IMG/VR virus record: IMGVR_UViG_3300037423_001547
Source of the DNA: a virus
Strand: one strand, 5' to 3'
DNA: 64,000 nucleotides
Part shown: positions 3,736 to 63,942 of the stretch, piece after piece
How the letters are laid out: each line of letters begins with the position of its first letter
Numbering within the stretch: position 1 is the first letter of the stretch
The notes under the pieces: generated by a model
What the model was told of the DNA's origin: nothing
Database searches by the model: none
The model's input: the letters and a program-made list of their open reading frames with translations, nothing else
Program-made: the position numbers and the translations under genes

Positions 3736-4050
3736 TTGCGTTCTGGCCGGAAAGCGCACTCACGATGTACCAGAGATGGTACAGACATTGATCATCGCGG
3801 GCAGCAGCGTGTACCCGTGCCATCCGATCCGCTGCCCGACTGGGTACTCACCCGCCGCCGGGCCATCGGAGATGCCGTCCGCGCAGCCCGCACCGCCAAG
3901 AAGCTCAGCCAGGAGACCTTAGGCGAGCTGACGGGCCTCGACCGCAAAACCGTCAACCGGATCGAGCAAGGCACACACCCCACGACCATCGACCGCCTCC
4001 TCCTCATCGCCGACGCGCTTGACACACCTCTCGCTGACCTCGTCAGGTGA
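3736..4050 (+). CDS. XRE-family HTH protein, up to 104 aa
   Basis: HTH LSQETLGELTGLDRKTVNRIEQG. Start uncertain: TTG 3736 or GTG 3817. Followed by an intrinsic terminator. Confidence 0.7.
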   Translation: MRSGRKAHSRCTRDGTDIDHRGQQRVPVPSDPLPDWVLTRRRAIGDAVRAARTAKKLSQETLGELTGLDRKTVNRIEQGTHPTTIDRLLLIADALDTPLADLVR

Positions 4051-4083
4051 CGGACCGCCTCTCGTTCTACGCGGGAGGGCGGG

Positions 4084-4114
4084 GCGTCCGTCGCGTCGGA
4101 CGCGGACTTTTTTT
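4084..4114 (+). terminator. rho-independent terminator
   Basis: GCGTCCG-TCGCGT-CGGACGC stem-loop followed by GGAC and a run of seven T, which is conspicuous in this GC-rich DNA. Confidence 0.75.
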
Positions 4115-4305
4115 GGCGGGCTCCCGTAGCACGCCTCACCAGCACGTCCGCTGACCCAGCCTGTCGGCCCGTACAGGGTGCGGACATAGACCGGCCCGCT
4201 GCAAGGGATCACGGCGGCGTGTCTACGTCATGTCGCAGGCTCGCCAACAGGAGGCCCCGCCCATCCGCCACGGGGGAGGCAGACGGACGGGGCCAGCCAG
4301 TGGTG

Positions 4306-4758
4306 CTACACGGCCGCCGGGACGGGCACGAGAGCACGAGCCTGCTCCATCAGTCCCGCGTCCTCAACCGCGAACCTGCCGGCCGTCACCCGCAGGTGCC
4401 CGTAGTAGGCGCTGTCGAGGTCGACCGTGCGGGTCATGTCCAGCGACCACGAGGCCTCGGGGACGTCGATCGTCCCGGCCTTACGGACAGTGCGGGAGCC
4501 CGAGCCGGTGCACGCGAGCCAGCATCCGGCGCGCTGCTCATGCTGGCCCTTCCACTCGCCGACGAACCCATGCCGGGCGGCCATCGCGAACAGATCACCC
4601 GGTTCGTGGACGTTACCTTCGACGGGGATGACGCCGAGGACGGCGGTGAGTCCGCCGTCGGTGGTGGTGTAGGCGAGGACGCAGCGGGAGCTGGTTTCCC
4701 AGTCGTGGAGGAACGGGAAGATCGTGACGCGGCCGTGTCCCTTGATGTCTCTCGCCAT
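4306..4758 (-). CDS. hypothetical protein, 150 aa
   Basis: ATG 4758 preceded by GAGAGGA. Coding bias. No motif recognised. Confidence 0.6.
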   Translation of the reverse strand: MARDIKGHGRVTIFPFLHDWETSSRCVLAYTTTDGGLTAVLGVIPVEGNVHEPGDLFAMAARHGFVGEWKGQHEQRAGCWLACTGSGSRTVRKAGTIDVPEASWSLDMTRTVDLDSAYYGHLRVTAGRFAVEDAGLMEQARALVPVPAAV

Positions 4759-13715: not shown

Positions 13716-13874
13716 ATGAACACCGCCGTCACCATCACCGCGATCATCGCCGCCGTCGCCCTGCTGAACAGCGGCATCACCGCCCTACGCGACATCGCCA
13801 AAGCGAAACACCAGACCGTCACTAAGCACTGCAAGACCTGCACCTGCGACAACAGCAAGGAGTCAGAGGCATGA
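13716..13874 (+). CDS. small membrane protein, 52 aa
   Basis: TM VTITAIIAAVALLNSGI, then KHCKTCTC. Its stop overlaps the epimerase start. Confidence 0.45.
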   Translation: MNTAVTITAIIAAVALLNSGITALRDIAKAKHQTVTKHCKTCTCDNSKESEA

Positions 13875-23125: not shown

Positions 23126-24334
23126 CTACCTCCGAACCCCATAGACGCTCTCCGGCATGCATGCCACGTACTGGTTCCGCAGATCCGTCGCCGCGTCCCC
23201 TGAGACCGCGCTGCCGCCGCCGGCTACGACTCCGATCCAGAAGTCCATGCTCGTCGTACTCGCCTTGGTGACGCCGCCGTTCGTGTGTGCGGTGAAGGTG
23301 CGGGCGGAGCCGACGGCGAACCGGTTGCCGTCGGAGTCGTTCGCCGTGGCGGTGACGTATCCGGATGCCGCGAAGCTGGTGTTGGTCTCCAGCGTGGACC
23401 GGTAGGCGGCCAACGTGGCGGAGGTGCCGGTCTGGAGGTAGCCCTCAACGAACCGGGAGCCGCGGCGGAGGGTGAGGTCGAGGGTGGTGCGCCCGGGGTT
23501 CTGGCTCTTGATGAGCCTCACGACGGCCATCTCGGGGTCGTTGCGGATGAGGGTGGCTGCGTCCCAGGTGGTGATGCTGCTGGCGGATCCGGCGACGGAG
23601 ACGTTCCACAGCTTCGAGTGGTAGGCGCCGCCGGTGTAGGCCTGTACGTCGAGGGTGGCCGAGGCGCTGGGTGTGACGTTGACGAGGCCGTTCGACAGGG
23701 CCCAACCAGCGGCCGAGAGCGGCACGTCGACGCCGTACACCTCCTGCGACGCCGTGGTGGTGACCTTCACGCGGCCCGTCAGGTAGCTGGTCGGGGCGCA
23801 GCCCCAGCGTGGGCTGATGTTGGCGGGGACGCTGCGGTAGACGGTGATCGTGCCGTCCGCGCTGGCGCGGGTCATCGTGGTCGGGTTGGTGGTGCCGGTG
23901 TAGTAGCCGTAGTGGCCGATCGGCGGGGCGTGCCAGCGCTCGCCGGTCAGGGAGAAGTCGTTCAACCGGACGGCGCCGGTGAGGCGGGACTGGAGGTCGG
24001 TCTCCGAGTCGGAGCCGACCCGGTCCAGGCTGACTTTCCAGTCGGCGGTCACCATGTCCGTGCGGTACTCGGTGTACGTGCTGCTCGCGGCCTTGACCGT
24101 GTAGTAGCCGTTCCGCTCCGGCTTGTCCGTCCACGTGACGGGGATGCACTGGCCCGGGATCAGCGCGTTGATCCCGTCGTGTCGGGCCACCACCTGCGCG
24201 CGGGTGAGCGGCGGATACGACTCCTGCCCTTCGATGTCGAGGCTACGGTCGTCGCCGCCAGACTCTCCGACGGCGAACGTCTCCCGCAATGGGATCCGCC
24301 CGAGCTGGACGTCGCCCCAGTTGTACAAGGCCAT
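23126..24334 (-). CDS. distal tail protein (Dit-like), 402 aa
   Basis: ATGA overlap with the tape-measure stop (ATG 24334). Synteny TMP-Dit-Tal. The ORF-track 499-aa version overlaps TMP and is unlikely. Confidence 0.75.
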   Translation of the reverse strand: MALYNWGDVQLGRIPLRETFAVGESGGDDRSLDIEGQESYPPLTRAQVVARHDGINALIPGQCIPVTWTDKPERNGYYTVKAASSTYTEYRTDMVTADWKVSLDRVGSDSETDLQSRLTGAVRLNDFSLTGERWHAPPIGHYGYYTGTTNPTTMTRASADGTITVYRSVPANISPRWGCAPTSYLTGRVKVTTTASQEVYGVDVPLSAAGWALSNGLVNVTPSASATLDVQAYTGGAYHSKLWNVSVAGSASSITTWDAATLIRNDPEMAVVRLIKSQNPGRTTLDLTLRRGSRFVEGYLQTGTSATLAAYRSTLETNTSFAASGYVTATANDSDGNRFAVGSARTFTAHTNGGVTKASTTSMDFWIGVVAGGGSAVSGDAATDLRNQYVACMPESVYGVRR

Positions 24335-27300
24335 CAGCGCGCCCTCTCCCGGTCGTAGGTCCGCAGCGCTTCCTTGATCTCGACGACCAGCTCCTGCGCG
24401 GCCTGCCTGCGCGCGGACCGGCTGGAGAAGTCGAAGCTGCCCGAGACGGTGATGTTCTCGATCGTGACGCTGCCGCCACCCCGACCGGAGACGAGCTGCT
24501 CGAACATCGCCGTCTGCCGGGCGTCCAGCACGCGCTCCGGGCGTCCGGTCCGGTTGATGGCCATCGTGGCGCCGGGCTGCAGCAGGCCACCGCTGTCGTA
24601 CTTGGCGGCCGGCGCGAAGCCCCACCGGCTGGTGAACAGGCTGTCGCGGTAGGAGCGGGCGCGCGGGCCGACGATGACGCCGGCGCCGCCCCGGGACTCG
24701 ACGTTGACGCCTGCGATGGTGCCTGCGGTGTGGCCGACACCGGAGTTGGTGATCCCGACCATGAAGGGGCTGTTGAGGTTGCGGACCCAGCCGGACGGGC
24801 CGTTGTTCCCGACGAACGCGCCGGTCGCCCAGCGGCGGTGCGGGCGCTCGCCACGGATCACAGACTCAATCGCCGACATGAACCCGGAGCAGTCCCAGCT
24901 GGGGTTCCCGTTTCCGGCCCACTGATAGGGCAGGCCAGCCTGGGTCTTCGCCCACGCCAGCGCCCGCTGTACGGCTGGCCCGCCCACGGCCTTCTTGTCC
25001 TCGTTGCCCAGGAAAGACAGCATCCCGTCGAGGGCCTTGTTGGAGAGGCCCTTCAGGAGGGAGCCGACGCCGCCGCCGGGGATCCGGCCGATGAGCGGGC
25101 GGACGATGGCGGCGATGGCTTTCTGCGCGGCCGACTTGAGTCCACCGATCACCAGGTCTTTCGCCCAGTCGACTGCGCCGCCGATGGCTCCTCCGATGCC
25201 GGAGGTGATGCTGCCGACGATGCCGCCGGAGGCGTAGTGCTGGGTGCCGCCTTGGTACCGGCGGCGTTCCTCTTGCCTGCTGGGGTTGCCGCCGGTTTTG
25301 GTGGGGTGGTCCTGGCCGAGCATGGCGTCGATGCCGCGGTGTCCGCCGAGCTGGGCGACCTGCTGCTTGGAGAGGATGCGCTCGCCGGGGGTGAGCATGG
25401 CGGGGACGGTGTCGGTGTTGCCGGTGCCGGGGACGACGCCGCCCTTGTTGAAGCCGAGGCTGATGGTGGGCAGCGTCAGCTTGGAGTTGATTTTTCCGGC
25501 GATGGTGTTCCACATCTTCCGGATGCCTGAGTTGTACACATGTGACACCACCCATTTCACGGGGGCCGCGAACTTGGACTGGATGCCCGCGAACAGGGTT
25601 CCGGTGCCGTCACGGATCGCGCGGACACCGTTGAGGAAGGCGTTCTTGAAGTCGCTGAGCTTGCCTCGCAGGGTGGAGAAGACGCTGGTGACCTTGGACA
25701 CGGCGCTGTTCCACAGCCCGTTCCAGGTGTTCGTGACCGAAGTCCTCAGCCCGGACACCCAGTTCACTACCGACGTCTTCGCGCCGGTGAGGGCCTTCCA
25801 CAGTCCGGACCAGAAGCTGTCCCACTTCGATCGGGCGCTGTTCCACAGGTTGTTCCAGGTGTCGACGACCCACTTGCGCAGGTTGTTGAAGATCTCCTTC
25901 GACTTCGTCCAGAGCTTGGTGAACCAGTCGATGATCGCGTGCACCAGATCCGGGATGATCGAGTGCCCGACGAGAACGTCATACAGCCACGTGAACTTGT
26001 CGACGATCCACTTGACGCCGTCCGTGATCGCCTTGGTGAACGTGGTGATCCACCCGATGACCGTCGTAATCGCCGGGACCAGCGTGGTGATCGCGCTCGT
26101 GAGTACGGTCGTCAGCATGGTCGCGAGCTGGAGGATCAGCGGCATCAAAGGTGTGAGCACCTGCAACGCCAGGTCCAACAGCGCGATCGTGAGCTGCGAC
26201 AGCGGCGGAATCAACGGCAACACCGCAAGCATCAGCTGCGGGAACAAAGGAGCCAACTGCCCGAGGAACTGGCCGAACTGCTGCACGATCGGCACCAGCG
26301 CCCCGACGACCGGCAACAAGCCCTGCGTCAACGCGCCGATCAGCGGCACCAACTGGGCGCCGAACGCCGAGATCATCGGCCCCAGCGCCTCGACGATAGC
26401 CCCGATCAGCTCACCGAGCGGCGGCAGCAGCGGCATGACCGCCTGCACCAGCCCGACGATGATGTCCCCGACATCCGACACGATCGGCAGCAGCGCGTCC
26501 ACGATCGGCATCAACGCCTTGCCCAGCGCAGCGGCGAGGTCGGCGAGGACGGGCCCGAACTTTTCCGCCAACTCGGTCACGACTGGCGCCAGCGCGGCGA
26601 GCAGCGGCAGCAGCGCCTCGATCACCGCACCCAGGGTTCCCGCGAACAGCTTCGCGATCGAGTTGACCGCCGTAAAGATCGACGTGAGGGCCTTCTGCAC
26701 CTCCGGCATCGCTGTGATCTTCCGCAGCTCCGCGAACACGGCCCCCAACGAACCGAGCGCGTCACCACCACCTGCGGATGCCGCCTTGAAGATGTTCTTG
26801 ACCGTGCCGAAGATGTCACCGAGGAGCTGCCCGAACTGCTTCGCGATGTCGACACCGTTGTTGATGGCGTCCTCAAGAGCACCCGACTTGAACGCGTCCG
26901 ACAACTTCTTCGAGATGCGGTCCGCCGCAGTGCCGGCCGCCGTCGTCAGCCGCTCGAACGCTGGCGACGCGGCGATGCTGATCTGCGTGAGCGCGGTGAC
27001 GATCTGCCCGGGGATCCGGGTCAGCTGGCTCGTGGCGTCGTTGAGGCCCTGGAACATCTTCCGCAGTTGGCCGGTCTTCGCCAGCTCGATCACAGCGTTC
27101 GCGGCGTTCGTCGCCATCGCGTTGAGATTGCTGGCCATGCCGACCAGCCCAGCCCGCAGCGAGGGGATCACCGCCGTGGACAGCTCGGTGAACTTCTGCC
27201 CCAACCCTTGGAAGAGGGCGTTCTGAACGTCCAGCTTCAGGCCCCGCCACGCATCCCGCTGCGCGAGCACAGAGTTGACGAAGGCCTGCGCGTTCGGCGC

Positions 27301-28776
27301 CAGGTTGGCGATCGCTGTACCCAGCTTGTCGGTGGCTGAGGCGCCGGCCTCCTGCGCGGCCGCGAGCGCCTCCGCGGCTTCCTTCGCTGCCTCCTGGGCG
27401 TCGGCGATCTGCCGGGCCCCGTCCTTGGCGGCCTGCGCTGCCGCGGCCTGGGCGTCCGCGACGTCCCGCTGGGCTTTCGCGATCCGCTGCGCCCCGTCTA
27501 CCTGGGCGCGGGCGGCGTCGATCTGGGCGTCCTTCAGCTCCTGGGTCTTGTCCTTGATCTCCTGGTTGGCGTCACGCTCCTTCTCTTTGGCGTCCTTGAC
27601 CTTCTTGCTGCCTTCGACCCCGGCCTCGTTCGCTGCGGTGGTCTGCTCCTGAAGGCGCTGCGTCTCGGTCTGCTGCTCGTTGAGTGCCTGCAGGGCTTTG
27701 TCGTAGGCCAGCTGCGCCTTGTCGATTTCCTCCTGCGTTGCCTTCGAGCCCTTGGCTTTGACCGCGGCCAGCTCCTGCTCGGCGTCCTGCAGGTCCAGCA
27801 CCTTCTGCCGCTGGTCCAACTGGGCGTCGGCGAGCCGGTCGTTCAAGTCCTGGAGATCTTCGGCGGCCTGCTTGCGAGCATCGTTGAGGTCTTCCTGTGC
27901 CCGCTTCGCTGCCCGCTGCGCATCCGCGAGGTCCCGCTCCGCCTGCTCCACCTGTTCGGCCGCCCGCCGGCTGGCGTCGGCCACGTCCTGGACGGTGTTC
28001 TTCAGGTTCTGCTGCGCGTCCTCGATGTCCCGGGCTGCCCTCACGCGGGCCTCGGCAGCGTTGACCTCGGCGTCCTTCACAGCCCGCTGTGCCTTCGCAA
28101 GGGACCGCTGCGCCGACTCCACCCGCCGCGTCGCGTTCTCCGCGGTGGCCGCGCTCTTCGTGGCCGGCGCGAACGCGGCCTTGAAAGCGTCCCCGATCCC
28201 GGACGTGCCGATCTTGATGGCGGCGAACGCGGCACCCAGCGACAGCACCGCCGGCGCGGCCAGCGCTGCGGCCGGACCCATCTGGATGATGGCCTGTCCG
28301 AGCGAAGCCAGCGTGGGGAGTGCGCCAGTGGCTAGGACTTTCAGGTTGGTCAGGGCAGAGGTGAGGCTGCCGATTCCGGCCGAGCTGCCTCCCGCTCCTC
28401 CCACGCTCCCGGTGAGGCGCGAGAGCGCGGACCGGTCGAGGTCGACGCGGACGTTGATGCGGCGGTCGCGGGTGAGGGTGTCGAGATCGGCGCGGGCGCG
28501 GCCGGTGTCGGCGTCTGCGGTGATCCGTGTGGTGCGGGCACGGGTGAGGAGTGCCAGGTCGTCGGCTGCCGCACGGGTGTCGACGTCGGCGGTGATCCGG
28601 GCGGTGCGGTCCCGCATCAAGGCGTCGAGGCGAGCGAGGGCGGACCGGTCGTCGAGTTCGACGCCCACCTTGACGATGTACCGGCGGGACTGGAGCCGCT
28701 GCATGGACCGGTTGAACGAGGTCTCATCGGCCGTGACCTCGACGAAACCCTCAGCGATCCGAAACGCGCCGGCCAT
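24334..28776 (-). CDS. tape measure protein with C-terminal NlpC/P60 peptidase domain, 1480 aa
   Basis: Long Ala/Gln/Lys coiled-coil, hydrophobic Gly/Ala/Leu/Pro-rich middle region, LPYQWAGNGNPSWDCSGF...GHTAG (NlpC/P60 Cys-His). Follows the G/GT chaperones. Confidence 0.95.
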   Translation of the reverse strand: MAGAFRIAEGFVEVTADETSFNRSMQRLQSRRYIVKVGVELDDRSALARLDALMRDRTARITADVDTRAAADDLALLTRARTTRITADADTGRARADLDTLTRDRRINVRVDLDRSALSRLTGSVGGAGGSSAGIGSLTSALTNLKVLATGALPTLASLGQAIIQMGPAAALAAPAVLSLGAAFAAIKIGTSGIGDAFKAAFAPATKSAATAENATRRVESAQRSLAKAQRAVKDAEVNAAEARVRAARDIEDAQQNLKNTVQDVADASRRAAEQVEQAERDLADAQRAAKRAQEDLNDARKQAAEDLQDLNDRLADAQLDQRQKVLDLQDAEQELAAVKAKGSKATQEEIDKAQLAYDKALQALNEQQTETQRLQEQTTAANEAGVEGSKKVKDAKEKERDANQEIKDKTQELKDAQIDAARAQVDGAQRIAKAQRDVADAQAAAAQAAKDGARQIADAQEAAKEAAEALAAAQEAGASATDKLGTAIANLAPNAQAFVNSVLAQRDAWRGLKLDVQNALFQGLGQKFTELSTAVIPSLRAGLVGMASNLNAMATNAANAVIELAKTGQLRKMFQGLNDATSQLTRIPGQIVTALTQISIAASPAFERLTTAAGTAADRISKKLSDAFKSGALEDAINNGVDIAKQFGQLLGDIFGTVKNIFKAASAGGGDALGSLGAVFAELRKITAMPEVQKALTSIFTAVNSIAKLFAGTLGAVIEALLPLLAALAPVVTELAEKFGPVLADLAAALGKALMPIVDALLPIVSDVGDIIVGLVQAVMPLLPPLGELIGAIVEALGPMISAFGAQLVPLIGALTQGLLPVVGALVPIVQQFGQFLGQLAPLFPQLMLAVLPLIPPLSQLTIALLDLALQVLTPLMPLILQLATMLTTVLTSAITTLVPAITTVIGWITTFTKAITDGVKWIVDKFTWLYDVLVGHSIIPDLVHAIIDWFTKLWTKSKEIFNNLRKWVVDTWNNLWNSARSKWDSFWSGLWKALTGAKTSVVNWVSGLRTSVTNTWNGLWNSAVSKVTSVFSTLRGKLSDFKNAFLNGVRAIRDGTGTLFAGIQSKFAAPVKWVVSHVYNSGIRKMWNTIAGKINSKLTLPTISLGFNKGGVVPGTGNTDTVPAMLTPGERILSKQQVAQLGGHRGIDAMLGQDHPTKTGGNPSRQEERRRYQGGTQHYASGGIVGSITSGIGGAIGGAVDWAKDLVIGGLKSAAQKAIAAIVRPLIGRIPGGGVGSLLKGLSNKALDGMLSFLGNEDKKAVGGPAVQRALAWAKTQAGLPYQWAGNGNPSWDCSGFMSAIESVIRGERPHRRWATGAFVGNNGPSGWVRNLNSPFMVGITNSGVGHTAGTIAGVNVESRGGAGVIVGPRARSYRDSLFTSRWGFAPAAKYDSGGLLQPGATMAINRTGRPERVLDARQTAMFEQLVSGRGGGSVTIENITVSGSFDFSSRSARRQAAQELVVEIKEALRTYDRERAR

Positions 28777-34546: not shown

Positions 34547-35563
34547 TCATGCGGCGGCCGGGAAGCGGCCGGTCCTGATCGCGGTGCGGGCGCGGGCCTC
34601 GACCGCGGGCAGCAGATCGTCGACGGTGCGCAACAACTCGCGGGCGGCGCGCAGCCGTACCGCACGGGACTCGGACGGGCGGGCGGTGCCGTAAGCGAGG
34701 GAACGGTGTGCCTCCCGCTGCAGTGCCAGCGGGAACGGCACGCCCTCGGTGGTCCACGCGTCGTCCCAGGGGACTGCTCTGCACCTGCAGTGCGCGTGCA
34801 AGGGCGGCCCGTCCACGCCCGGACGGTGCGCACCACGCTGCCGGGGATCCCAGGACAAGCCGCCCGGGAACGGCTCGTCCTTCTTGACGACGCGGCCGGT
34901 GTACGCGCTGCAACGAACGCAGGCATCCGCTTCCGATACCCACACCCTGAGCGGAGCCGCCGCCCGCACCACCGCGTCCAGGCCCTCGTGCACGGCGGTG
35001 TTGATGACCCACGCGATATGCGCACGCACCGCAGGCAGCGCGGCGCGGGCTGCGCCGAGCCCGGCCAGCATGTGCGACCAGCGCGACACCCGGTCCGGAT
35101 GCAGCAAGAACAGTGCACGGTCGCGGCGCTCGGTCACCATCTCCCGGATCCGGCGCGCCTCGTCCCGCAGCGAACGGCTGACGGACGGGACACGCGGTTC
35201 CCGGCGCCGTCGGCCCGACGCGGCTCGAACGAACTCGGTGCCCTGCCGCACCCCCATCGCGAGCGCCGGGCCGAGCCCGTCGGCGAGTGCGGCGGGGGCC
35301 CGGTCGGCGATGCCGGCGAGGAGTCGCTGGACGGCTGCCTTCGCGGTGGCAAGGATCCGGCGCAGCGCGTCAGCCGAGGCAGCCGCATGGTGGGGTCCGC
35401 CGAACGCGCGGGTCCACGCATCGAGGATGCGACGGATCAGCTCCTCGAACGCCCGGTCGGCGCCGCGGAGCGCACGGGCGGCGATCCCGTTCTCCAGGTC
35501 AACGACCTCGCCCGTGTGCTCGTCCTGCACCAGGTTCATGAGGCGGTCGCTGGAGTACGGCAT
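34547..35563 (-). CDS. MuF-like minor capsid / head morphogenesis protein, 338 aa
   Basis: C-terminal WVSEADACVRCSAYTG...PPLHAHCRCRAVPW is the Phage_Mu_F / SPP1 gp7 signature. ATGA overlap with the portal stop. Confidence 0.85.
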   Translation of the reverse strand: MPYSSDRLMNLVQDEHTGEVVDLENGIAARALRGADRAFEELIRRILDAWTRAFGGPHHAAASADALRRILATAKAAVQRLLAGIADRAPAALADGLGPALAMGVRQGTEFVRAASGRRRREPRVPSVSRSLRDEARRIREMVTERRDRALFLLHPDRVSRWSHMLAGLGAARAALPAVRAHIAWVINTAVHEGLDAVVRAAAPLRVWVSEADACVRCSAYTGRVVKKDEPFPGGLSWDPRQRGAHRPGVDGPPLHAHCRCRAVPWDDAWTTEGVPFPLALQREAHRSLAYGTARPSESRAVRLRAARELLRTVDDLLPAVEARARTAIRTGRFPAAA

Positions 35564-37191: not shown

Positions 37192-38799
37192 CTACGCATA
37201 CGTGGCGGCCCGAGCCGACGGCGCCGCCTTCTTCACCGGCGGCATGAATCGCCGGACGGCCGACCCCACCGCATCGACCATGTCGTCGTTCGGGCCCTTG
37301 GGGAACGTGCACATCTGCTGCTCCAACTCCGGCAGCCTGCGCGCGTGAAACACCCGGCCACGCTGATACAGCCCGAGCAACCCCTCAGCCCGCGTGAACT
37401 TCGGCTCGCTCTGGTGAACCGTCTTCACCCTCACCGGCAAGCTGTGGAGGATCGCCTGCCACGCGTCGCCGCCCTGGTTGACCTCGATCAGGACCAGTCC
37501 GATCCGCGGGAACTCATCCAGCAACGCCAGCACCCGCTCCCTCAGCTCCGGGCCCGGGCGGACCTTAAGCGCCATCGCCGCGTGCACGGTGCACCGCTTA
37601 TGCTGCGCCGACCACGACACCACGGCCAGCCCGGTGAAGTCGGACGCCCTCTTGGCGGTGGTGGCCGGGTCGATGCTGAGCATCATGTGGGTAATCGGGT
37701 CGGCGCCGGTGACCGGGTCGACGCGGTCTTCGATGTTCAGGGCGCCGTTGAGGCGTTCCAGTGCGGTCGGCGGTGTCGGGTAGCGGAAGTCGTCCGGTGT
37801 CCACAGTGCGCCGTCCGCGGCCAGCGGATCGTTCGCCATGTTCTTCGCATAAGACCTGGTGTGCCGTATCTCGGTCAGGTACCCGATGGGCCACTTCGCC
37901 GGCCACATGGACCGCTCCGTGCCGTCGGGGCGTTCCACGATCGGCAGGCTGTGGTGCGCGCGGATCCCCTCGTCCTGGATCCACTGGGCGACGTTGACAC
38001 CCTTCGCGGCCCGGACCAGCTGGTGGATGATGCTGCCCGGCATGGTGACGGTCCCGCAGATCGCGACGCGGGCGTAGATGTTCAGCGGCAGGATTGCGTC
38101 CAGCAGGGTGGTGAGTCGCTTCGAGGCGAGGGCGGCGGAGTAGCTGCTCTCGTCGGGCTCCACATCGTCGCAGAGAAGCAGGTCAGGTCGCTTCTCCTCC
38201 ACCTTCATACCGAGGGCACTCGAATCGATGCCGTGAGCTGCGAAGATGAACCCGCTCTTGGCGATGTACATGCTGTGCGTGTCCGCGATGTTCTGCCCGG
38301 ACGGCCGTTTCGCCGCGGTGCATAGGTCTGGGAAGTCACGGCGCAGCAAGGCGTTACCGTCCAGCTCCCGCTTGAACGTGCTGAGATGCCGTTCCGCCTG
38401 GGTGGCGGCCGATGCGAATGCTGCTGCGAACTTCACGTGCCCGTGCGCGGCAGCCCACATCGGCAGGATCAGGAACCACCACGTCGTCTTGCCGGTGTTG
38501 CGGGGCGCGATCCAGGCGTCGCGCTCCTCGGCCGGCCCGGTGGGCGGTCGTACCCAGCGGCGGCCGGCCCTGCACCAGTCGAGGTGGGCGTCACCGAAGG
38601 TGATCCGACCTTCCTCGTCTTTGAGATGGTGCCTGAGGTAAACGAGGGCGAACAGCAGGGGATCGAGCCGGGTGAGGGTGCGCCGGCCTTCGGGGTCGGC
38701 GAGGAGCCGCGCGTCGAACTGGGCGAGGTAGGCGTCCAGGTTGAAGGTCTCTGCGTCGAGGCCTTCGAGGTAGCCGACCGTGCGGGTTGCGGTCGTCAC
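37192..38799 (-). CDS. terL: terminase large subunit, 535 aa
   Basis: Walker A-like APRNTGKTTW, ATPase and nuclease halves, synteny. GTG 38799 lies 4 nt after the upstream stop. ORF-track start 38901 overlaps the previous gene. Confidence 0.9.
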   Translation of the reverse strand: MTTATRTVGYLEGLDAETFNLDAYLAQFDARLLADPEGRRTLTRLDPLLFALVYLRHHLKDEEGRITFGDAHLDWCRAGRRWVRPPTGPAEERDAWIAPRNTGKTTWWFLILPMWAAAHGHVKFAAAFASAATQAERHLSTFKRELDGNALLRRDFPDLCTAAKRPSGQNIADTHSMYIAKSGFIFAAHGIDSSALGMKVEEKRPDLLLCDDVEPDESSYSAALASKRLTTLLDAILPLNIYARVAICGTVTMPGSIIHQLVRAAKGVNVAQWIQDEGIRAHHSLPIVERPDGTERSMWPAKWPIGYLTEIRHTRSYAKNMANDPLAADGALWTPDDFRYPTPPTALERLNGALNIEDRVDPVTGADPITHMMLSIDPATTAKRASDFTGLAVVSWSAQHKRCTVHAAMALKVRPGPELRERVLALLDEFPRIGLVLIEVNQGGDAWQAILHSLPVRVKTVHQSEPKFTRAEGLLGLYQRGRVFHARRLPELEQQMCTFPKGPNDDMVDAVGSAVRRFMPPVKKAAPSARAATYA

Positions 38800-38803
38800 C
38801 GGG

Positions 38804-39043
38804 TCAGCCCTCGTCGTCGCGGCTGCTGACGTAGCCGCCGTTCTCGATCTCCAAGGCGGCCGTGAGCATGCCGAGCGTGGTGATCCAGTCGAGGGATTCA
38901 CTGGCCGCCTTGACGAGGCTGACGACCCCGTCAGCCTTTACGATCTTCAGGATGACGTGGGCGTCGGTCGGCATGTCACCCTCGTCCAGGTCGACGGTGA
39001 CGCCGAGCGCGTCGAGGAGCTGCCCGATCTTCTGGTCAGGCAT
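38804..39043 (-). CDS. hypothetical protein between terS and terL, 79 aa
   Basis: Complete ORF overlapping the terS end by 8 nt. Confidence 0.55.
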   Translation of the reverse strand: MPDQKIGQLLDALGVTVDLDEGDMPTDAHVILKIVKADGVVSLVKAASESLDWITTLGMLTAALEIENGGYVSSRDDEG

Positions 39044-45953: not shown

Positions 45954-47846
45954 TCAGAGGCTCTTGATGATGGCGTTGACCTTCCCGAGGGACACCCCGG
46001 TCGCCTCCGCCGTAGCGCGCTGCGTCGCCCCCGGGTTGGCCGTGAGGAACGCCCGCACCTTGTCTTCGGGGGACGCGCCGAACGCTGGCGTGGCCGTGTC
46101 CACGGCGGCGGCCGGCAGCTCCCGGACCGCGTTGTCGTCCATGGTCCAGGTGCGGATCAGGACGGGACCGTAGCCCTTGAGGAAGCCGTGGCCGCGGAAT
46201 GCTCGGTCGTCGGGGATCGACTGGGGTTCGTAGTAGGCGCAGTCGTCCAGTGCGACCTGGGCGTGGGTGCCGTTCGCGACGCGCAGGGAGAAGCGTTGCA
46301 GCATGTTCGGGGCGATCATCTTGTGAATGCCGGGCGCATCACCGCTGGTCACGCCGTACTGGGTCTGCCACCACAGCACCACGCCACGGGACCGGCCGAG
46401 CGATGACAGCTCGATCAGCTTCTGCAGAAGGTCGTCCTTCCCCTTCTTCAACCCCGCGATCACCGCGAGGATGACCTGACCCTCGTCGATGTTCACGGTG
46501 AGCTGCCGGCCGTCCCATACGGACAGGCCGCGGGCTCGCATCTCGCTCTTTCGGCTGGTCATCACGTCGTGCGCGTACTCGATCGCGTCGACGACCTCGG
46601 GCGTGTCGGTGGCGCAGCGGCAGATCCCGTCCCACACGTTGGCCTCCTCGCCCTTGCCGTCGATCAGGATCAGCTCGCCACGCAGGTGCGCGTGCGCCAT
46701 CAACGGGCGTGTCGACCACGACTTGCCAGTACCGGACGCGCCGGTGATCAGGAGCCGCTCGTCGAACCTGATGAGGACTTCCTCACCGGTCTCCGTGTCC
46801 GTGCCGAGGGACACCATCAGGCCTTCCGGCGGCGGCATGACGTCCGCTGTCCACGCTGTCCGGACACCGGTCGCGGCATGGCTGGACACGAACTTGACCA
46901 GCAGTTCGTTCGTGACACGGCCCTCGGAGACGATGAACCGGCCGTCGGCACGCATCGCGGTCTGGATCTTGTCCCAGCCTGTCCGGGCTTCCTTCCTGGA
47001 CAGCTTGGACAGGCCGACGGTGGCCTTCCACCCGGACAAGGTCGACGTGACCTCGCAGGTCAGCACCTGCTCGCTGAACACCTGCCAGAACGCTTCACGG
47101 AGCGCACGTTCCTCACCCGTCGATCCGCCAAGGTAAGGGGCCTGTTCCTGCTGCATGAGGGTCTGCAGCCGGGCCAGGTCGAGGGCGGTCTTCACCTGGG
47201 ACTGTGCTGCGATGGCGTCACCGCGGAACGTCTCGGTACGCGTCCGGGCCTGCTTGAGCCGGATGTCTTCCCGCTTCTCTTCGAGGTCAAGGCGGTGCCC
47301 GGCATTGTTGCGCTCATACATCAGCTTGAAGCCGAGCGCGGCCGCCGTCCCGCCGAGCCACGCGAAGAAGTCGACCCAGCCGCTTCCGGTGGCTGCGGTG
47401 GTCCAGGTGATCCCACCGACCGCGAGGCCGAGGACGACGGAGTTGAAGCCCTGCGGCCACGATCGGTTCATGCCGGCGATCCCGGCGATGGTGCCGATGA
47501 CGGTGGCCGTACCGCCGCAGAGGGACGGCCAAAGAGGGCCGTAGGCGTGGACGGCGATGTTCGCGCAGCCGGTGACCAGGGTTGGTACGGCGACAGTCCA
47601 GTAGCTGGTCTTCGCAGTGTCGGACTTCGCCCAGTCGGGGACCTTGCCGGCGTGTTGGGCGGGCTCGGGTGCGGCGTCCTTGACGACCCGTTGAGCGGCC
47701 ACCAGCGCAGCCGTGAGGGCTTGGATGTCGAGTTCCCCCACGCGGGGTGCGGCAGGCGCTCCAGCGGCCTCCAGGGGGCTGGCGTGCCCGTCCACGAAGT
47801 CATCCCACGCCGGATCAGGGGCACCCGGGAACGGGTCGACAGCCAT
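45954..47846 (-). CDS. FtsK/SpoIIIE-family dsDNA translocase with TraB-like architecture, 630 aa
   Basis: N-terminal TM helices, Walker A GASGTGKSW, Walker B-like LTVNIDEGQ, C-terminal wHTH ATQRATAEATGVSLGKVNAIIKSL. GAGGAG RBS. Confidence 0.9.
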   Translation of the reverse strand: MAVDPFPGAPDPAWDDFVDGHASPLEAAGAPAAPRVGELDIQALTAALVAAQRVVKDAAPEPAQHAGKVPDWAKSDTAKTSYWTVAVPTLVTGCANIAVHAYGPLWPSLCGGTATVIGTIAGIAGMNRSWPQGFNSVVLGLAVGGITWTTAATGSGWVDFFAWLGGTAAALGFKLMYERNNAGHRLDLEEKREDIRLKQARTRTETFRGDAIAAQSQVKTALDLARLQTLMQQEQAPYLGGSTGEERALREAFWQVFSEQVLTCEVTSTLSGWKATVGLSKLSRKEARTGWDKIQTAMRADGRFIVSEGRVTNELLVKFVSSHAATGVRTAWTADVMPPPEGLMVSLGTDTETGEEVLIRFDERLLITGASGTGKSWSTRPLMAHAHLRGELILIDGKGEEANVWDGICRCATDTPEVVDAIEYAHDVMTSRKSEMRARGLSVWDGRQLTVNIDEGQVILAVIAGLKKGKDDLLQKLIELSSLGRSRGVVLWWQTQYGVTSGDAPGIHKMIAPNMLQRFSLRVANGTHAQVALDDCAYYEPQSIPDDRAFRGHGFLKGYGPVLIRTWTMDDNAVRELPAAAVDTATPAFGASPEDKVRAFLTANPGATQRATAEATGVSLGKVNAIIKSL

Positions 47847-47917: not shown

Positions 47918-48862
47918 TTAGCTGTACGGGTTGCCGATCCGCTTGGCGGTGCGGCGGATACTGTCGGCGTTCATGTCCGGGCGGAGCCGTGTGGCTGTCC
48001 GGACCAGGTCGTCGTGACGGACACCGTTGTCCGAGAGTGCCCGGACGAGGGCGGCCGGCCCGGACGCCTTGTCGGCAAGCGCCCGGAGAGCGTCCGAGTA
48101 TGTGTCCGTGCCGGTCAGGACGTTGTTCGCGTCTGCTGTCCGGATGCTGCCGGATACCTCATCCGGACTGTCTGGGGACGTGTCCGGGCGGTCTCCGGAC
48201 AGCATGTCCAGGGTGTCCGCCCCGACCTCCGCGACGGTGTCCGAAGGGGCCGGCCGGGCCGCGCTGACGGTGATGCCGAGAGGGGATCGGCGGGACAGCT
48301 CGTCCCGCTTCCGGATCCGCTCCAACCCGACCTGGAAGGTGACGTCGTCCCGCTCCAGGGCGACCTTCCCCTGAGCGCGGATCAGGGCGACCTCCTCGGC
48401 AGCCTCCCGCTCGATCTCCGCCGCGCGCCGCCGGGAGATGTATTCGCTGTCCCGGATGACGGCGTTGATCTCCGCCTCCTGCTCTGCGGTGAGTGCGGTC
48501 GGATCCCGGCGGAGCCTGATGTCACCAACCCATGCGATCTTCGCGACGATCGGGGGGAGGGCGCCGGCGAACGCGGCGGCTGGGGTGATGTGCCAGCCGT
48601 GCCAGGCGAGGAGGGTGCAGGCGACGCCGAGGGTGATCCACTCGACGACCTCGATGATGCGGCCGCCGATGCCCTTGTAGGACAGGTATTGGACTACGCC
48701 CCACAGGCCGTCGACGGAGACGGCGGCGAGGAGTCCCCACGCGCCGGACTGCACCAGGTCGGTGATGGACCATCCGGTCCAGCCGAGGGATACGAGGGTG
48801 AACAGGATGGCGACGGGCGTGAGGGCGGTCGTGCGGGGCGCGGGTGCGTCGGCGGTCTTCAC
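47918..48862 (-). CDS. polytopic membrane protein (DUF2637-like N-half) with a charged C-terminal half, 314 aa
   Basis: Four hydrophobic helices in the first 125 aa, then a coiled-coil and charged tail. GTG follows GGAGA. Family assignment is from memory. Confidence 0.6.
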   Translation of the reverse strand: MKTADAPAPRTTALTPVAILFTLVSLGWTGWSITDLVQSGAWGLLAAVSVDGLWGVVQYLSYKGIGGRIIEVVEWITLGVACTLLAWHGWHITPAAAFAGALPPIVAKIAWVGDIRLRRDPTALTAEQEAEINAVIRDSEYISRRRAAEIEREAAEEVALIRAQGKVALERDDVTFQVGLERIRKRDELSRRSPLGITVSAARPAPSDTVAEVGADTLDMLSGDRPDTSPDSPDEVSGSIRTADANNVLTGTDTYSDALRALADKASGPAALVRALSDNGVRHDDLVRTATRLRPDMNADSIRRTAKRIGNPYS

Positions 48863-55879: not shown

Positions 55880-56029
55880 TCAGGCGCGGCGCTGCTGCCA
55901 GTGGCTGGGGTCGTTGCCCGTGCCGCAGCAGGTGGGGCAGTTCCCGGTGTCGGGGTCGCAGTCGTGGCAGCCGTTGCCGTTGCAGTCGGGGTGGGCTCCG
56001 TCGCCGTGGCAGGTGCGGCAGTCGTTCAT
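55880..56029 (-). CDS. Cys-rich mini-protein, 49 aa (not in the ORF track)
   Basis: ATG follows AGGAG. Sequence MNDCRTCHGDGAHPDCNGNGCHDCDPDTGNCPTCCGTGND is a DnaJ-type CxxCxGxG-like zinc finger. Confidence 0.45.
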   Translation of the reverse strand: MNDCRTCHGDGAHPDCNGNGCHDCDPDTGNCPTCCGTGNDPSHWQQRRA

Positions 56030-56092: not shown

Positions 56093-56248
56093 TCAGGCGG
56101 CGGGCTCGTAGGCGGTGCGGAGCCGGTTGGTGATCCAGGCGTGGCCGCAGTGGGGGCAGCGGTAGGCGGAGCGGATCTGGGTGTCGTCTCGGCGTTCGGC
56201 GCGGGGGCGTATGCCGCAGCGGCAGCAGTTGGGGCAGGTGTCGGTCAC
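56093..56248 (-). CDS. zinc-ribbon mini-protein, 51 aa (not in the ORF track)
   Basis: GTG follows GGAGA. CPNCC...CPHCG pair. Confidence 0.4.
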   Translation of the reverse strand: MTDTCPNCCRCGIRPRAERRDDTQIRSAYRCPHCGHAWITNRLRTAYEPAA

Positions 56249-56261
56249 GGTTGGTCTCCGT

Positions 56262-56630
56262 TCAAGCGGAGGGTTCGGCGAGGGGGAGCTGGCCGCTGGC
56301 TTCGATGGCGGCGCGTCGGGTGGCGGCTGCCGTCTGTGCGTGGTGGTCGCGGTCGTAGTGGAGGTGGCAGCCCTGGCACATGGCGCGGAGGTTGTCGTCG
56401 TGGCAGTTCTCGGGGGTGTGGTCGAGGTGGGCGACGGTGAGCACCACCTTCGAGCCGGTGCCGTACGCCTGACCGCCGTTGACGTTGGGGCAGCGGCCGA
56501 CGTGTGTGCCGCGTCCGCATTCGCCGTGGCATTCGCAGCGGCCGGCGGCGCGTTCGGTGCGGATGCGGAGGCTGATGGTTTTCCAGTCGGCGGGGTACCG
56601 GTGGCGGTTTTCGGGCCGGATGGGGCTCAT
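56262..56630 (-). CDS. HNH endonuclease, 122 aa
   Basis: CECHGECG...VAHLDH.PENC...NL.AMCQGCHL.YD is an HNH-with-zinc-ligands pattern. Confidence 0.85.
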   Translation of the reverse strand: MSPIRPENRHRYPADWKTISLRIRTERAAGRCECHGECGRGTHVGRCPNVNGGQAYGTGSKVVLTVAHLDHTPENCHDDNLRAMCQGCHLHYDRDHHAQTAAATRRAAIEASGQLPLAEPSA

Positions 56631-56643
56631 GGCTGGTGTCCTG

Positions 56644-58473
56644 TCAGGCGGCGTCGTGGGGTGCGTCGGGGTGGCCGTGGTTGGGCCTGTCGGGGTGGCT
56701 GCCGGTTTCGGGGTCGCAGCCGAGGTGGGTGTCGTAGCCGCGGTCGAGTCGGTAGCCGGTGAGGGGTTCGGTGCAGACGGTGCAGCAGCGTTCTGAGTGC
56801 TGCGCTGTTCCCGGTGTTCCCTCCCCGTTCCCCCTCTTCGAGGGGGGAACGTGGGGAACGGGGGGCGTTCCCGGTGTTTCCCCGAGCGTTCCCGGAAACG
56901 TCTGACCTGCGGTTTCTTCTGTTCCCGGTGTGTTCCGGGAAACGTTTCCGGGAAACGTGGGTTGGGGAACGTCGGGGAAACGTTGCTGGGAAACGTCGAT
57001 ACCGGGCTTTTCGGACCGCGCCTTGCGGTGCTTCACAGCCTCCGCGATCTTTTCGTTGCGGGCGGAGATCTGAAGTTCTGCCAGCTTTGCGCGGACCTGC
57101 CGGTTGCCCGCGTCGTCGGGGACTCCTGCACGGTCCAGGGCGGCGATGATGTGCTCGACGGTGCCGGGGACGGCCGCCATGCCGGCGTCCTGGCCGGGCT
57201 CGGTGTCGTAGGTCATTAGGACGTGCCGGGTGCCGCCCAACGCCCAGTTGTCGCCGTCACGCTGGGACTGGCGCAGCAGGGTGAAGGAGTCGGGGCCGAT
57301 GCCGGTGCGGGTGTGGGTGCGCTTCAGTACGAGGGTGCCGCCGCCCTGGTAGGTCAGCTCCCATACGTGGTCGACGTCCTGCGTCTTTGCTGAGGAGCCC
57401 CGGCCGCCGCGCTCTTTGTCCTTGCCGAAGTGGTCCAGGCGCACGCTCGCGATCCGGTCCCGCTTCAATGGCAGCAGGGTGTGCCGGTACAGCGACAGCC
57501 ACGTATCGGCGTCGTTCTCGGGTCCGCCGATGAATCGGGACACGGTGTCGATGACGACGAGTTCGGCTCCGGTGGCCTTCACCAGGGCCATGAGGTCGGC
57601 GCCGCCGCCGGCTGTGTCGAGGGGGCGGACGGGTGGGAAGGATGCGTACCTCAGTTCGCCCATGCGGAGCGGGCCTGCGCCGAAGGACAGGAACCGTTCC
57701 TGTACCTGTTCCTGTCCGTTTTCGGCGTCGAGGTACAGCACCTTCACGGGGTCCTGTGCGGTGTCGCCGAGGAACGGCTGGCCGGTGGCCATCCGCCACA
57801 TCCACTCTTGCGTGAAGAGGGACTTGCCGGCCTTGCCGTCGCCGACGAGGGTGATCTGCTGGCCGGGGCCCATGAGTTTGCCGGGCAGGAGCTGGATGGC
57901 GCCGAAGTCGGTCGCGAAGAACGTGCCCCAGTTCAGGAGAGAGGCGACGAGGTGGGCGGGTCCGCGACCGGTGTTCTCGCGGAGCTGTTCGCCCTGTTGG
58001 AACTCGGCGACTATGGCGGCGAGTTCGTCACCGCTGACGCCGCGGTCGATGGCGGCTTTCAGCGCGGTGGAGTGGGCGTCGTAGCGGCGTTGCCGCGCGG
58101 TTTCGGCGATGCGTTCGGCGAACGCGGCGGCCATCATCGACGGGATGGTCTCGTTGCCGAGCCGGTAGATGAGGTTGCCGCCCTCGACGCGGTGGAGCTG
58201 CCCCTGCTTTTCGATCTCAGCGCGCACGAGGGCCGGGTGGCATTCCTGGCCGGTGGCGTACAGGCCGGCGGCGATGTCCCAGATGAGCTGGTGCGCGGGC
58301 CGGTACAAGTCGTCGCGGCTGATGAGGAGGGAGCATTCCTCGTAGGCGAGGCGGGAGTGCATGACGACGCCGACGACGTACTGTTCGGCCTCGATGTCGT
58401 GGGGAGGCGGGTTTCGGTTGAGGCCGTCCTGGTCCGCCGTGTCGCGCGGGCTCATGTGGCGGACGTTCTCCAC
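56644..58473 (-). CDS. replicative helicase-like protein: DnaB N-terminal domain + RecA/RepA-type ATPase + wHTH/zinc C-terminus, 609 aa
   Basis: PPHDIEAEQYVVGVVM (DnaB-N), Walker A GDGKAGKS, Walker B LVVIDTVSRF. GTG 58473 lies 7 nt after GAGGAG. Confidence 0.85.
   Translation of the reverse strand: MENVRHMSPRDTADQDGLNRNPPPHDIEAEQYVVGVVMHSRLAYEECSLLISRDDLYRPAHQLIWDIAAGLYATGQECHPALVRAEIEKQGQLHRVEGGNLIYRLGNETIPSMMAAAFAERIAETARQRRYDAHSTALKAAIDRGVSGDELAAIVAEFQQGEQLRENTGRGPAHLVASLLNWGTFFATDFGAIQLLPGKLMGPGQQITLVGDGKAGKSLFTQEWMWRMATGQPFLGDTAQDPVKVLYLDAENGQEQVQERFLSFGAGPLRMGELRYASFPPVRPLDTAGGGADLMALVKATGAELVVIDTVSRFIGGPENDADTWLSLYRHTLLPLKRDRIASVRLDHFGKDKERGGRGSSAKTQDVDHVWELTYQGGGTLVLKRTHTRTGIGPDSFTLLRQSQRDGDNWALGGTRHVLMTYDTEPGQDAGMAAVPGTVEHIIAALDRAGVPDDAGNRQVRAKLAELQISARNEKIAEAVKHRKARSEKPGIDVSQQRFPDVPQPTFPGNVSRNTPGTEETAGQTFPGTLGETPGTPPVPHVPPSKRGNGEGTPGTAQHSERCCTVCTEPLTGYRLDRGYDTHLGCDPETGSHPDRPNHGHPDAPHDAA
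56807..56996. repeat. iteron-like array inside the 3' part of the helicase gene
   Basis: GTTCCCGGTGT at 56807, 56867 and 56921. GGG(G/A)AACGT at 56845, 56937, 56950, 56964, 56974 and 56988 (five copies about 12-14 bp apart). 17-bp palindrome ACGTTTCCGGGAAACGT at 56942-56958. Confidence 0.7.
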
Positions 58474-58484
58474 GGGCGGTCTCC

Positions 58485-58790
58485 TCAGAAGAGCGTTGTC
58501 GTCGGGCACTGGTGCGATATGAGGTGCTGGTGCGGGCAGTCCGGCGGGTGTCGGGTGCCGGTCCAGCGCAGGCGTAGGGGCCGGAAGCGTTGGCGAGGCA
58601 GGCACCAGACGAGGTCGTGTGGTGTGCTTGCTGCGGCGGCCGGCCCGTAGGGGCGGGGCTCGTCGGCGGGTGGGAGGTCGACGCTGGCTTTGATGGCGGC
58701 GACGTGGCCGACCCACTGGGTGAGGACGGGCGCGGAGCAGGCCGGGCAGCGGCTGGTGCTGCTGCCCTTTCCGCTCGCGCGCCCGCTCAT
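58485..58790 (-). CDS. zinc-ribbon hypothetical protein, 101 aa
   Basis: ATGA overlap with the upstream gene. CPAC...C...C...C pattern. Only the last 101 codons of the long ORF-track frame are plausible. Confidence 0.5.
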   Translation of the reverse strand: MSGRASGKGSSTSRCPACSAPVLTQWVGHVAAIKASVDLPPADEPRPYGPAAAASTPHDLVWCLPRQRFRPLRLRWTGTRHPPDCPHQHLISHQCPTTTLF

Positions 58791-62870: not shown

Positions 62871-63196
62871 GACGCCACCCCCTGCCGGACGTCCTGCAGC
62901 TCAGCCGTCAGACCCTCGTTCGCCCGCTGCAGGTCGTCGAGTTGCTGGGTCATCGAGGCCATCGCGCGCCGCGCCAGGTGCAGTTGGCGACGCAGCTCCG
63001 CATCGCCCTCGGCCGGCCGCGGGTACTGCACCGGGCTGTCCGGCATGGTGTCGCGGAGCCGGGTGATCTCTTCGGCCTGCCGAGTGATCGTGGACAGCCG
63101 CTCGGCGGCGAGCTTCTCCGCGGCCTCGCGGGCTTCGCTGGCACGCTGGTAGCGGTACTGGAGGTCGACGTACTTGCTGGCGGAGACGAGTCTCAT
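62867..63196 (-). CDS. coiled-coil protein, 109 aa
   Basis: Heptad-like charged sequence. ATGA overlap with the exonuclease stop. Confidence 0.5.
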   Translation of the reverse strand: MRLVSASKYVDLQYRYQRASEAREAAEKLAAERLSTITRQAEEITRLRDTMPDSPVQYPRPAEGDAELRRQLHLARRAMASMTQQLDDLQRANEGLTAELQDVRQGVAS

Positions 63197-63942
63197 GCGG
63201 ACTCACCCCCGACCGGGCGCAGCGGCCACGTGCCATCCACGACCGCGCCCGGCTTCCCGGACCGGCGGAGGAAGCCCTGATAGTTCGCGGCCCACCGTTC
63301 GTGCATGGTCACCTGCCAGCCATGCAGCACCCTCGCGGGCACCTGCAGTTGCTCGTGCCGGTCGGCGATTGCCCGGGCGACATCCAAGGCGGCCTGCGCG
63401 TCCGCGTCCGCGGTGTGCGCATCCGTCAACGCCACCCCGTAGTGCTCGGCCAGCGAGCCCAGGTTCCGGCGCCCCTTACGGAACTTGTCGGCCGCGCGGT
63501 CCAGGACAAGGGGGTCCACGACCGGCTGCACCGTGCCGATCCGGTCGGCGACCGTCGGCACGCCGTGGCGCGCGCACTCGGCGTCCAGCAGGCTGAGGTC
63601 GAATGGCGCGTTCATCACGACCAGCGCCGCCCGCCCAGCCGACAACTCACCCGCGAGCGCGTCGGCGATTTCCTCAACGACCTGCTTCGCCGGGCGGCCA
63701 TGCGCGCGGGCGTGCTCGGTGGTGATCCCGTGCACGGCGGTCGCGGCGGCGGGGATCTCGACGCCGTCCACGTCAGTCAGCCAGCGCAGTGTTTCGCCGT
63801 TCGGCCGGATCAGCGCGGCGGACACGATCCGGTCGGTGCCGATCACGGTGCCGGTCGTCTCGCAGTCGTATGCGGCGAGCGGGCCGCGGTGCCAGGGCAC
63901 TTCGACGTGCCCGGTCAGGTCGGGCTGTACGGGGGCGGTCAT
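63193..63942 (-). CDS. DnaQ-like 3'-5' exonuclease (DEDDh), 249 aa
   Basis: ExoI YDCETTG, ExoII VVMNAPFDLSLL, ExoIII HTADADA. Confidence 0.85.
   Translation of the reverse strand: MTAPVQPDLTGHVEVPWHRGPLAAYDCETTGTVIGTDRIVSAALIRPNGETLRWLTDVDGVEIPAAATAVHGITTEHARAHGRPAKQVVEEIADALAGELSAGRAALVVMNAPFDLSLLDAECARHGVPTVADRIGTVQPVVDPLVLDRAADKFRKGRRNLGSLAEHYGVALTDAHTADADAQAALDVARAIADRHEQLQVPARVLHGWQVTMHERWAANYQGFLRRSGKPGAVVDGTWPLRPVGGESA

Follow-up and report, generated by a model that had tools for sequence, protein, structure and literature searches.

The lambda-type origin, as found in the O gene of lambda, in the Stx phages and in gene 18 of P22, lies inside the open reading frame (ORF) of a replication protein. 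Its iterons occupy an inter-domain segment near the part that encodes the DNA-binding domain, and the specificity modules vary among related phages. In these phages, the iteron content also alters the length and sequence of the O protein (PMC7466680). A second arrangement is found in the pathogenicity islands of Staphylococcus aureus (SaPIs), whose Rep proteins are initiating helicases and recognize, through a C-terminal domain, 6-12 short iterons situated directly 3′ of rep; in the SaPI ori, opposed iteron sets surround a central region, specificity types vary and no separate loader is needed (PMC9371898). Here, we analyzed a 64,000-nucleotide stretch of viral DNA (IMG/VR record IMGVR_UViG_3300037423_001547, hereafter the window), in which an array of short repeats (56800-56997) lies within a gene for a DnaB-like helicase (56644-58473, minus strand). 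The lambda-type features listed above recur at this locus, in a protein of another family. We conclude that the array is almost certainly a conserved cis-acting DNA element overprinted by coding sequence, and that it is probably the iteron-type replication origin of a Streptomyces prophage, serving a putative self-loading helicase-initiator of the DnaB family.

The array contains 12 strict copies of CGTTYCC/GGRAACG, or 16 if a relaxed form is admitted, and 66 linker codons run across it. Counting both strands, the window has 30 copies of GGRAACG, 12 of which fall within 56826-56995; the 18 copies elsewhere predict about 0.05 per 170 bp. The longer forms are also far more frequent than chance would allow. 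ACGTTYCC is present 12 times in the window against 3.6 expected, with eight copies within 56845-56996, and GGGRAACGT nine times against 1.06 expected. The original prediction, which had been drawn from the letters of the window alone, listed at least seven GGG(G/A)AACGT copies; we count six strict ones in the array (56844, 56937, 56950, 56964, 56975 and 56988), the fifth starting one position later than the 56974 given at first. The cluster itself is confirmed. The three copies of GTTCCCGGTGT (56807, 56867 and 56921) and the overlapping palindromes GGAAACGTTTCC (56938-56949) and ACGTTTCC-G-GGAAACGT (56942-56958) were found as predicted; GTTCCCGGTGT has a fourth copy at 55940, and 0.07 are expected in the whole window. 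An unbiased scan of the window for clustered 8-mers ranked ACGTTTCC first, with six of its seven copies inside 250 bp.

The array has a defined internal order, which is shared with its relatives: direct iterons begin a few codons past the upstream helix domain and are followed by a central core, a second iteron set and a G+C-rich palindrome. In the window, the set next to the helix domain (56938-56996, minus strand) comprises five ACGTTYCC copies that are oriented along the coding strand and spaced 13, 11 and 14 bp apart; it is shared with relatives, and one inverted copy within it creates the palindrome GGAAACGTTTCC. This set overlaps a 27-mer, ACGTTTCCCGGAAACGTTTCCCGGAAC (56932-56958, minus strand), that is identical in 11 genes. 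The core, GAAGAAACCGCAGGTCAGAC (56900-56919, minus strand), consists of an A-rich tract and, after it, CAGGTCA. G+C content reaches its regional minimum here, and the core is a candidate site of melting or loading; an A-rich plus CAGGTCA core (consensus RAAACCSCAGGTCARAC) was found at 51 of 61 loci, with any iteron type and in coding and non-coding arrays alike. Beyond the core lie the distal iterons (56845-56900, minus strand), which are of mixed orientation, and the palindrome CCCCCTCTTCGAGGGGGG (56830-56847), which encodes PPSKRG and is flanked by convergent iterons (56826-56860 in all). The palindrome is kept across all iteron types and in non-coding relatives, and its distance from the core is 61-65 or 71-72 bp. 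Each side of the core has a median of six iterons, and the spacing of same-orientation iterons at 59 loci peaks at 11-13 bp, near one helical turn. A search for promoters and terminators in the array returned none.

Two other repeat clusters in the window were considered and set aside. GGGAACGG occurs three times within 170 bp of a head-module gene (34699-34872, plus strand), without the extended ACGTTYCC, and is probably due to chance. A cluster of GTCCGG(A/G)-type words with short inverted repeats (47960-48270) lies inside a 314-aa ORF without a family match; it came second in the k-mer scan, far weaker than the array, to which it is unrelated.

The repeats are selected as DNA and not as peptide, and five independent tests agree on this point. 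First, we held the 66-residue peptide fixed and redrew its codons from local usage in 20,000 resamplings, which gave 0.67±0.78 motif copies with a maximum of 5, compared with the 12 observed. The codon choice in the array is correspondingly unusual: G+C at third codon positions is 0.61 compared with 0.885 in the remaining gene, all five Val codons are GTT (3% in the background), six of ten Gly codons are GGA (8%) and five of ten Thr codons are ACA (2%). Second, the 12 copies are spread over all three frames and both orientations, so that they are translated as DVS, RFP, DVP, TFP, GNV, NVS, PGT, PVP, HVP and GNG. Third, the DNA of the array segment aligns well among 27 related genes, and the 27-mer shared by 11 of them is read in frame 0 as TFPGNVSRN in six and in frame 2 as RFPETFPGT in the other five; the ORF stays open because a 1-nt deletion ahead of the 27-mer is compensated by a 1-nt insertion behind it. 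Fourth, conservation at codon positions 1, 2 and 3 among 13 genes of the same type is 0.81, 0.82 and 0.76 in the array, compared with 0.78, 0.81 and 0.66 in the helicase body and 0.76, 0.81 and 0.57 in the helix domain, and the linker segment is the best-conserved DNA of the helicase gene.

The fifth test comes from relatives in which the array is not translated at all. In Micromonospora, Actinoplanes, Paractinoplanes, Streptosporangium and Nonomuraea, the helicase ORF ends directly behind the three-helix domain, the protein keeps its DnaB_N and AAA_25 body, and a homologous array of the same layout, with direct iterons, an A-rich plus CAGGTCA-like core, further iterons and a G+C-rich palindrome with convergent iterons, forms the non-coding DNA directly 3′ of the stop codon. 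A short relative from Streptomyces (L053) has a non-coding array of direct iterons, a CAGGTCA core and convergent iterons around a short inverted repeat, and Catellatospora has a non-coding GTGCGCA array with a CAGGTCA core; the G+C-rich palindrome was not identified in either of these two. The relatives keep the DNA and change the peptide, which is the reverse of the outcome that the original prediction had named as refuting it, a peptide linker conserved over scrambled DNA repeats. Two of these loci showed peculiarities of their own. The Catellatospora array (L049, approximately 4030-4480) is built on the near-palindromic GTGCGCA, and approximately 300 bp beyond it lies a different repeat cluster, TCTAGACC/GGTCTAGA, in 5-6 copies. 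In Streptomyces violascens (L030), the frame is lost within the array (approximately 4600-4686) and the zinc tail is untranslated (tail identity 6%), with the iterons intact; this frame loss reflects either prophage decay or faulty assembly.

The iteron unit differs from lineage to lineage, and within a lineage all array copies change together while the layout is common to all lineages. The units include ACGTTTCC in the window, ACGTTCCC, ACCTCCCC, SSTTCCCC, ACCTGTCC(CC), ACCTGTACC, CTGTTCC and GTGCGCA, as well as ACCTGCCC in the Streptomyces phage mu1/6. The gp21 protein of mu1/6 is the sole full-length homologue from an isolated phage in the collection searched, with 49% identity and the same domain order as the window helicase. 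Its gene differs in iteron sequence, carrying 8-10 copies of ACCTGCCC in the linker-coding part, and shares the core and the palindrome; no 7-mer cluster ranks higher than this array anywhere in the complete 38-kb genome of mu1/6. The mu1/6 record labels gp21 as a DNA helicase only and annotates no origin feature.

By sequence, the protein whose gene contains the array is a DnaB-family helicase of the RecA type (superfamily 4, SF4), to which both PHROGs and Pfam point. Its start codon is likely the GTG at 58473 (MENVRHM...), which is preceded by GGAGA and matches the N-termini of homologues. The public gene call instead starts at ATG 58455 and places a separate 101-aa gene upstream, and the mechanical ORF reaches 58716 through 87 additional upstream codons (58456-58716), which are Arg/Pro-rich and lack homologue support. 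More than 460 homologues of the helicase were found, nearly all of them from Streptomyces genomes. The DnaB-like N-terminal domain (58102-58407, minus strand; PF00772, E 7.5e-16) is modeled by AlphaFold2 (AF2) with a predicted local distance difference test score (pLDDT) of 80-90; in DnaB, this domain binds the primase DnaG. The RecA-type ATPase core (57415-57879, minus strand) matches PF13481 AAA_25 (E 2.8e-21), and its Walker A motif, GDGKAGKS, is invariant among relatives. The full AF2 model is of moderate quality (mean pLDDT 61), and its closest structures in Foldseek are bacterial DnaB helicases, to which it aligns across both domains (E 6e-15, approximately 440 columns). In contrast, no DnaB_C match was found in Pfam at E <= 0.01, and the best NCBIfam score was 57 bits, with the N-terminal domain alone aligned, compared with cut-offs of 385-898 for the DnaB models listed. 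Because the protein falls short of the curated DnaB models, we do not assign it as an ortholog of DnaB.

The ATPase is followed by a three-helix domain, the linker and a zinc-ribbon-like tail, in this order. A separate AF2 model of the last 181 residues shows a three-helix bundle, a disordered stretch of approximately 70 residues and a small zinc-ribbon-like module. The three-helix domain (57013-57159, minus strand; approximately residues 425-485 of the 603-aa protein; helices at residues 11-21, 29-38 and 45-59 of the model, pLDDT approximately 95) is a candidate reader of the iterons. The linker is of low complexity, made of Pro, Gly and Thr, and predicted to be disordered (pLDDT approximately 30-50), in agreement with the original prediction. 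That prediction placed it between the ATPase and a winged helix-turn-helix/zinc part; the zinc tail does follow the linker, but the helix domain precedes it, could not be classified as a winged helix-turn-helix and is predicted to have no wing. The tail (CxxC...H..C; 56710-56799, minus strand) is modeled at pLDDT 82-88 with invariant cysteines and is confined to the Streptomyces, Kitasatospora and mu1/6 lineage; the short relatives lack it.

The iteron type tracks helices 2-3 of the upstream three-helix domain (encoded by 57013-57105) and not the helicase body or the zinc tail. KIAEAVRxRKAR goes with ACGTTTCC, KV(S/A)RIVKARQ with ACGTTCCC and GSPRVIKRCADLGI..KIEEAVRIRKNR with ACCTCCCC. The clearest exchange was seen between the window and two type-B genes, L006 and L007, which are 83-85% identical to it in the helicase body, 51-53% identical in the helix domain and contain zero type-A copies. 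DNA identity to these genes is 80-90% in the helicase body and 70-88% in the neighboring DUF2303 gene, and it drops to 45% precisely at helices 2-3 and the first iterons. As judged from these alignments, helices 2-3 and the array were exchanged as one unit. We compared the distance in array composition with the distance in protein segments at 56 loci by partial Mantel tests. The correlation with helices 2-3 was r = 0.81, and 0.69 when the helicase body was controlled for (P <= 0.0005), whereas that with the helicase body given the helices was 0.17. Adjacent segments may covary by linkage alone, and the zinc tail, which flanks the array opposite the helices, was therefore taken as a control. 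It gave r = 0.27 and a partial value of 0.14 (P = 0.07), compared with 0.77 and 0.73 for helices 2-3.

Because selection acts on the DNA rather than on the peptide, a replication origin is the most likely function of the array. The computational checks support this reading, which had first been proposed from the letters of the window; origin firing and protein binding are what we infer from them. We propose that the three-helix domain binds the 8-bp iterons that start a few codons downstream of its own coding sequence, and that several protomers on the two iteron sets would assemble the helicase around the A-rich/CAGGTCA core without a separate initiator or loader. The DnaB-like N-terminal domain might then recruit the host primase and polymerase, judging by the known role of this domain in DnaB. 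In phages of the Streptomyces type, the reading frame continues through the putative origin to reach the zinc-ribbon tail, so that the disordered Pro/Gly/Thr linker would be a side effect of the binding sites. The scanned ORFs of the window, the recorded Pfam matches for the 10 kb upstream and the mu1/6 annotation yielded no further initiator, primase or polymerase.

Several observations weigh against an origin of this kind. There is no pronounced AT-rich unwinding element at the array, and the regional trough in G+C content is modest (57-63% compared with approximately 70%). The A/T-richer DNA that the original prediction placed at 57000-57100 has 58-63% G+C compared with approximately 68-70% nearby and encodes helices 2-3, so it received no support as an unwinding element; the conserved A-rich/CAGGTCA core would be the better candidate for melting. 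The three-helix domain has no significant match in the PDB, by single sequence or profile, or in Pfam at E <= 10, and its best Foldseek hit in the PDB has an E value of 3, with a weak likeness to the Fur/Zur, homeodomain and Rho_N folds. Cumulative GC skew is monotonic in the window and in mu1/6, with no inflection at the array, which is a weak objection for phage genes that run in one direction. Finally, physical linkage is expected to explain part of the covariation; the zinc-tail control argues otherwise, but it is a single control.

Some of these points would also fit a regulatory array. In that case, the helicase's own three-helix domain would still bind the repeats, which would serve for operon autoregulation, for titration or handcuffing of the helicase or as an incompatibility determinant, and the origin would lie elsewhere. 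DNA-level selection and covariation are compatible with any cognate binding array, and so is the lack of a strong AT-rich element. However, no second copy of the array was found in the window, and neither the window nor the complete mu1/6 genome has another cluster of the motif to act as the origin. Moreover, a type-independent core and palindrome at conserved spacing would be needless for a pure titration site. We therefore consider a purely regulatory role unlikely.

The link to the helicase gene could also be positional only, with the repeats bound by a different protein such as a phage regulator or a partition or packaging factor. This would suit a helix domain that matches no DNA-binding family and whose contact with the array is deduced. 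Nevertheless, the array always lies directly after the helix-domain coding sequence in several genera, despite differing downstream genes, and a comparison of the window with L006/L007 shows replaced iterons beside a DUF2303 gene that retains its 70-88% identity. Since the motif differs among phages of one host genus, the binder is unlikely to be a host factor. On this evidence, we regard a foreign binding protein as quite improbable.

We find it very improbable that the element acts as single-stranded DNA or RNA, in the form of hairpins for primosome or primase entry or as a translational or mRNA element. As single-stranded DNA, the coding strand of the array folds far more stably than shuffled sequences do (-52.8 kcal/mol, z = -4.95) and includes the conserved G+C-rich palindrome, but such stability is an automatic consequence of having one motif in inverted copies. 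The majority of copies are direct repeats at 11-13 bp, an Rfam search of the array gave no family above threshold, and the occurrence of the array in non-coding as well as coding DNA speaks against a translational role. An origin of the repeats in the low-complexity peptide, with no function of the DNA, is scarcely credible and was ruled out despite the Pro/Gly/Thr-rich composition and the recurring TPGT and TFPG units, because it predicts 0.67 copies instead of 12 and is at odds with the three frames, the two readings of the 27-mer, the non-coding homologues and the conserved third positions.

In its most general form, to which we give about even credence, the replication-origin reading would mean that these actinobacterial phages encode an SF4 helicase as their own initiator and loader, which reads an iteron origin at the 3′ end of its gene through an exchangeable three-helix module. 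In the Streptomyces branch, the gene would have grown through the origin, and the linker would consist of translated binding sites. To our knowledge, essentially no replication origins have been mapped in Streptomyces phages or in most actinophages, and full-text searches found no description of this element in the literature searchable. Our data provide a precise candidate origin for a prophage family that spans hundreds of Streptomyces genomes, includes the isolated phage mu1/6 and has at least six natural specificity types. The self-loading initiator-helicases known to us belong mainly to the AAA+ and superfamily 3 proteins; if our reading is true, a DnaB-type member is added to them, together with a loader-free and DnaA-free route by which a DnaB-type helicase is placed on DNA. 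It would also be an unusually clear case of a cis-element dictating coding sequence, with the same DNA read in different frames across phages. The family could supply compatible, orthogonal replicons for Streptomyces genetics. As an example of natural overprinting it is clean, since the DNA-binding sites fix the codons while the reading frame is free to change, and it warns that an annotated "low-complexity linker" can be a cis-element.

The window has a G+C content of approximately 68% and contains a prophage that is transcribed from the minus strand, from approximately 63.9 kb down to 18.7 kb; sugar-metabolism genes of host type lie below 18.5 kb. In public data, the contig sequence occurs only as assembled (Logan) contigs from soil and rhizosphere metagenomes. 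The early region includes an exonuclease gene (63193-63942) and YfdP-like, DUF2303, helicase, HNH endonuclease, methyltransferase and FtsK-like ATPase genes, along with many small genes without any family match; the DUF2303 gene is the upstream neighbor of the helicase gene. The structural region that follows includes the large terminase (37192-38901) and the tape measure (24334-28776). Between the two modules lies an unusual cargo gene (45954-47846, minus strand) for a 630-aa FtsK/SpoIIIE-like ATPase with a C-terminal winged-helix match. On the host side, a gene for an NAD-dependent epimerase/dehydratase (13871-15547, plus strand) is apparently interrupted by a LAGLIDADG intein: the epimerase domain falls into two stretches, LAGLIDADG_3 matches with E 2.6e-5 and the Intein_splicing match is weak.

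Just downstream of the helicase gene is the HNH endonuclease gene (56262-56630, minus strand), which has 80-90% nucleotide identity to HNH genes of Mycobacterium phages (Ksquared, KilKor, SkinnyPete and others). In a nucleotide search of the phage collection with a 3-kb query, this gene was the sole match, which suggests a recent transfer of the HNH gene between distant actinophage groups. The interval from the HNH gene to the methyltransferase gene contains two tiny Cys-rich ORFs (55880-56029 and 56093-56248, both minus strand). One of them, of 49 aa, has three repeats of the CxxC type (CRTCHGDG, CHDCDPDTG and CPTCCGTG); it carries the fourth exact GTTCCCGGTGT 11-mer, translated as DTGN, and its CDPDTG peptide is similar to CDPETG in the zinc tail of the helicase.

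The lambda parallel drawn in the original prediction thus holds for the position of the origin but not for the protein family. The lambda O protein is an initiator that recruits the host DnaB through P, whereas the window gene encodes a DnaB-like helicase itself (DnaB_N plus AAA_25), and no O or P homologue was found near it. The iterons here are 8 bp long and number approximately 12, compared with four to six repeats of 19 bp in lambda-type origins; no marked AT-rich tract follows them, and the putative DNA-binding domain is C-terminal to the ATPase. With bacterial DnaB, the window helicase shares the N-terminal helical domain and the RecA-like ATPase. In contrast to DnaB, its ATPase scores as AAA_25 and not as DnaB_C, and it has approximately 180 additional C-terminal residues. 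DnaB contains no sequence-specific DNA-binding module and requires DnaA together with a loader (DnaC, DnaI, DciA or lambda P).

The closest counterpart in logic may be SaPI Rep, since the window helicase appears to join an ATPase and a putative C-terminal origin-reading domain in one chain, as SaPI Rep does. The short relatives resemble the SaPIs in a further respect, for the gene is followed by the origin, with the non-coding array right after the stop codon. However, the SaPI Reps belong to an AAA+ MCM-like clade, move 3′-5′ and have a winged-helix C-terminal domain, whereas the window protein is RecA-type and DnaB-like and has no predicted wing. The SaPI ori also has a clear AT-rich center, and in the window the ORF reads through the array. 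Judged by analogy, the system in the window therefore resembles the lambda ori within O in position and the SaPI Rep/ori pair in logic.

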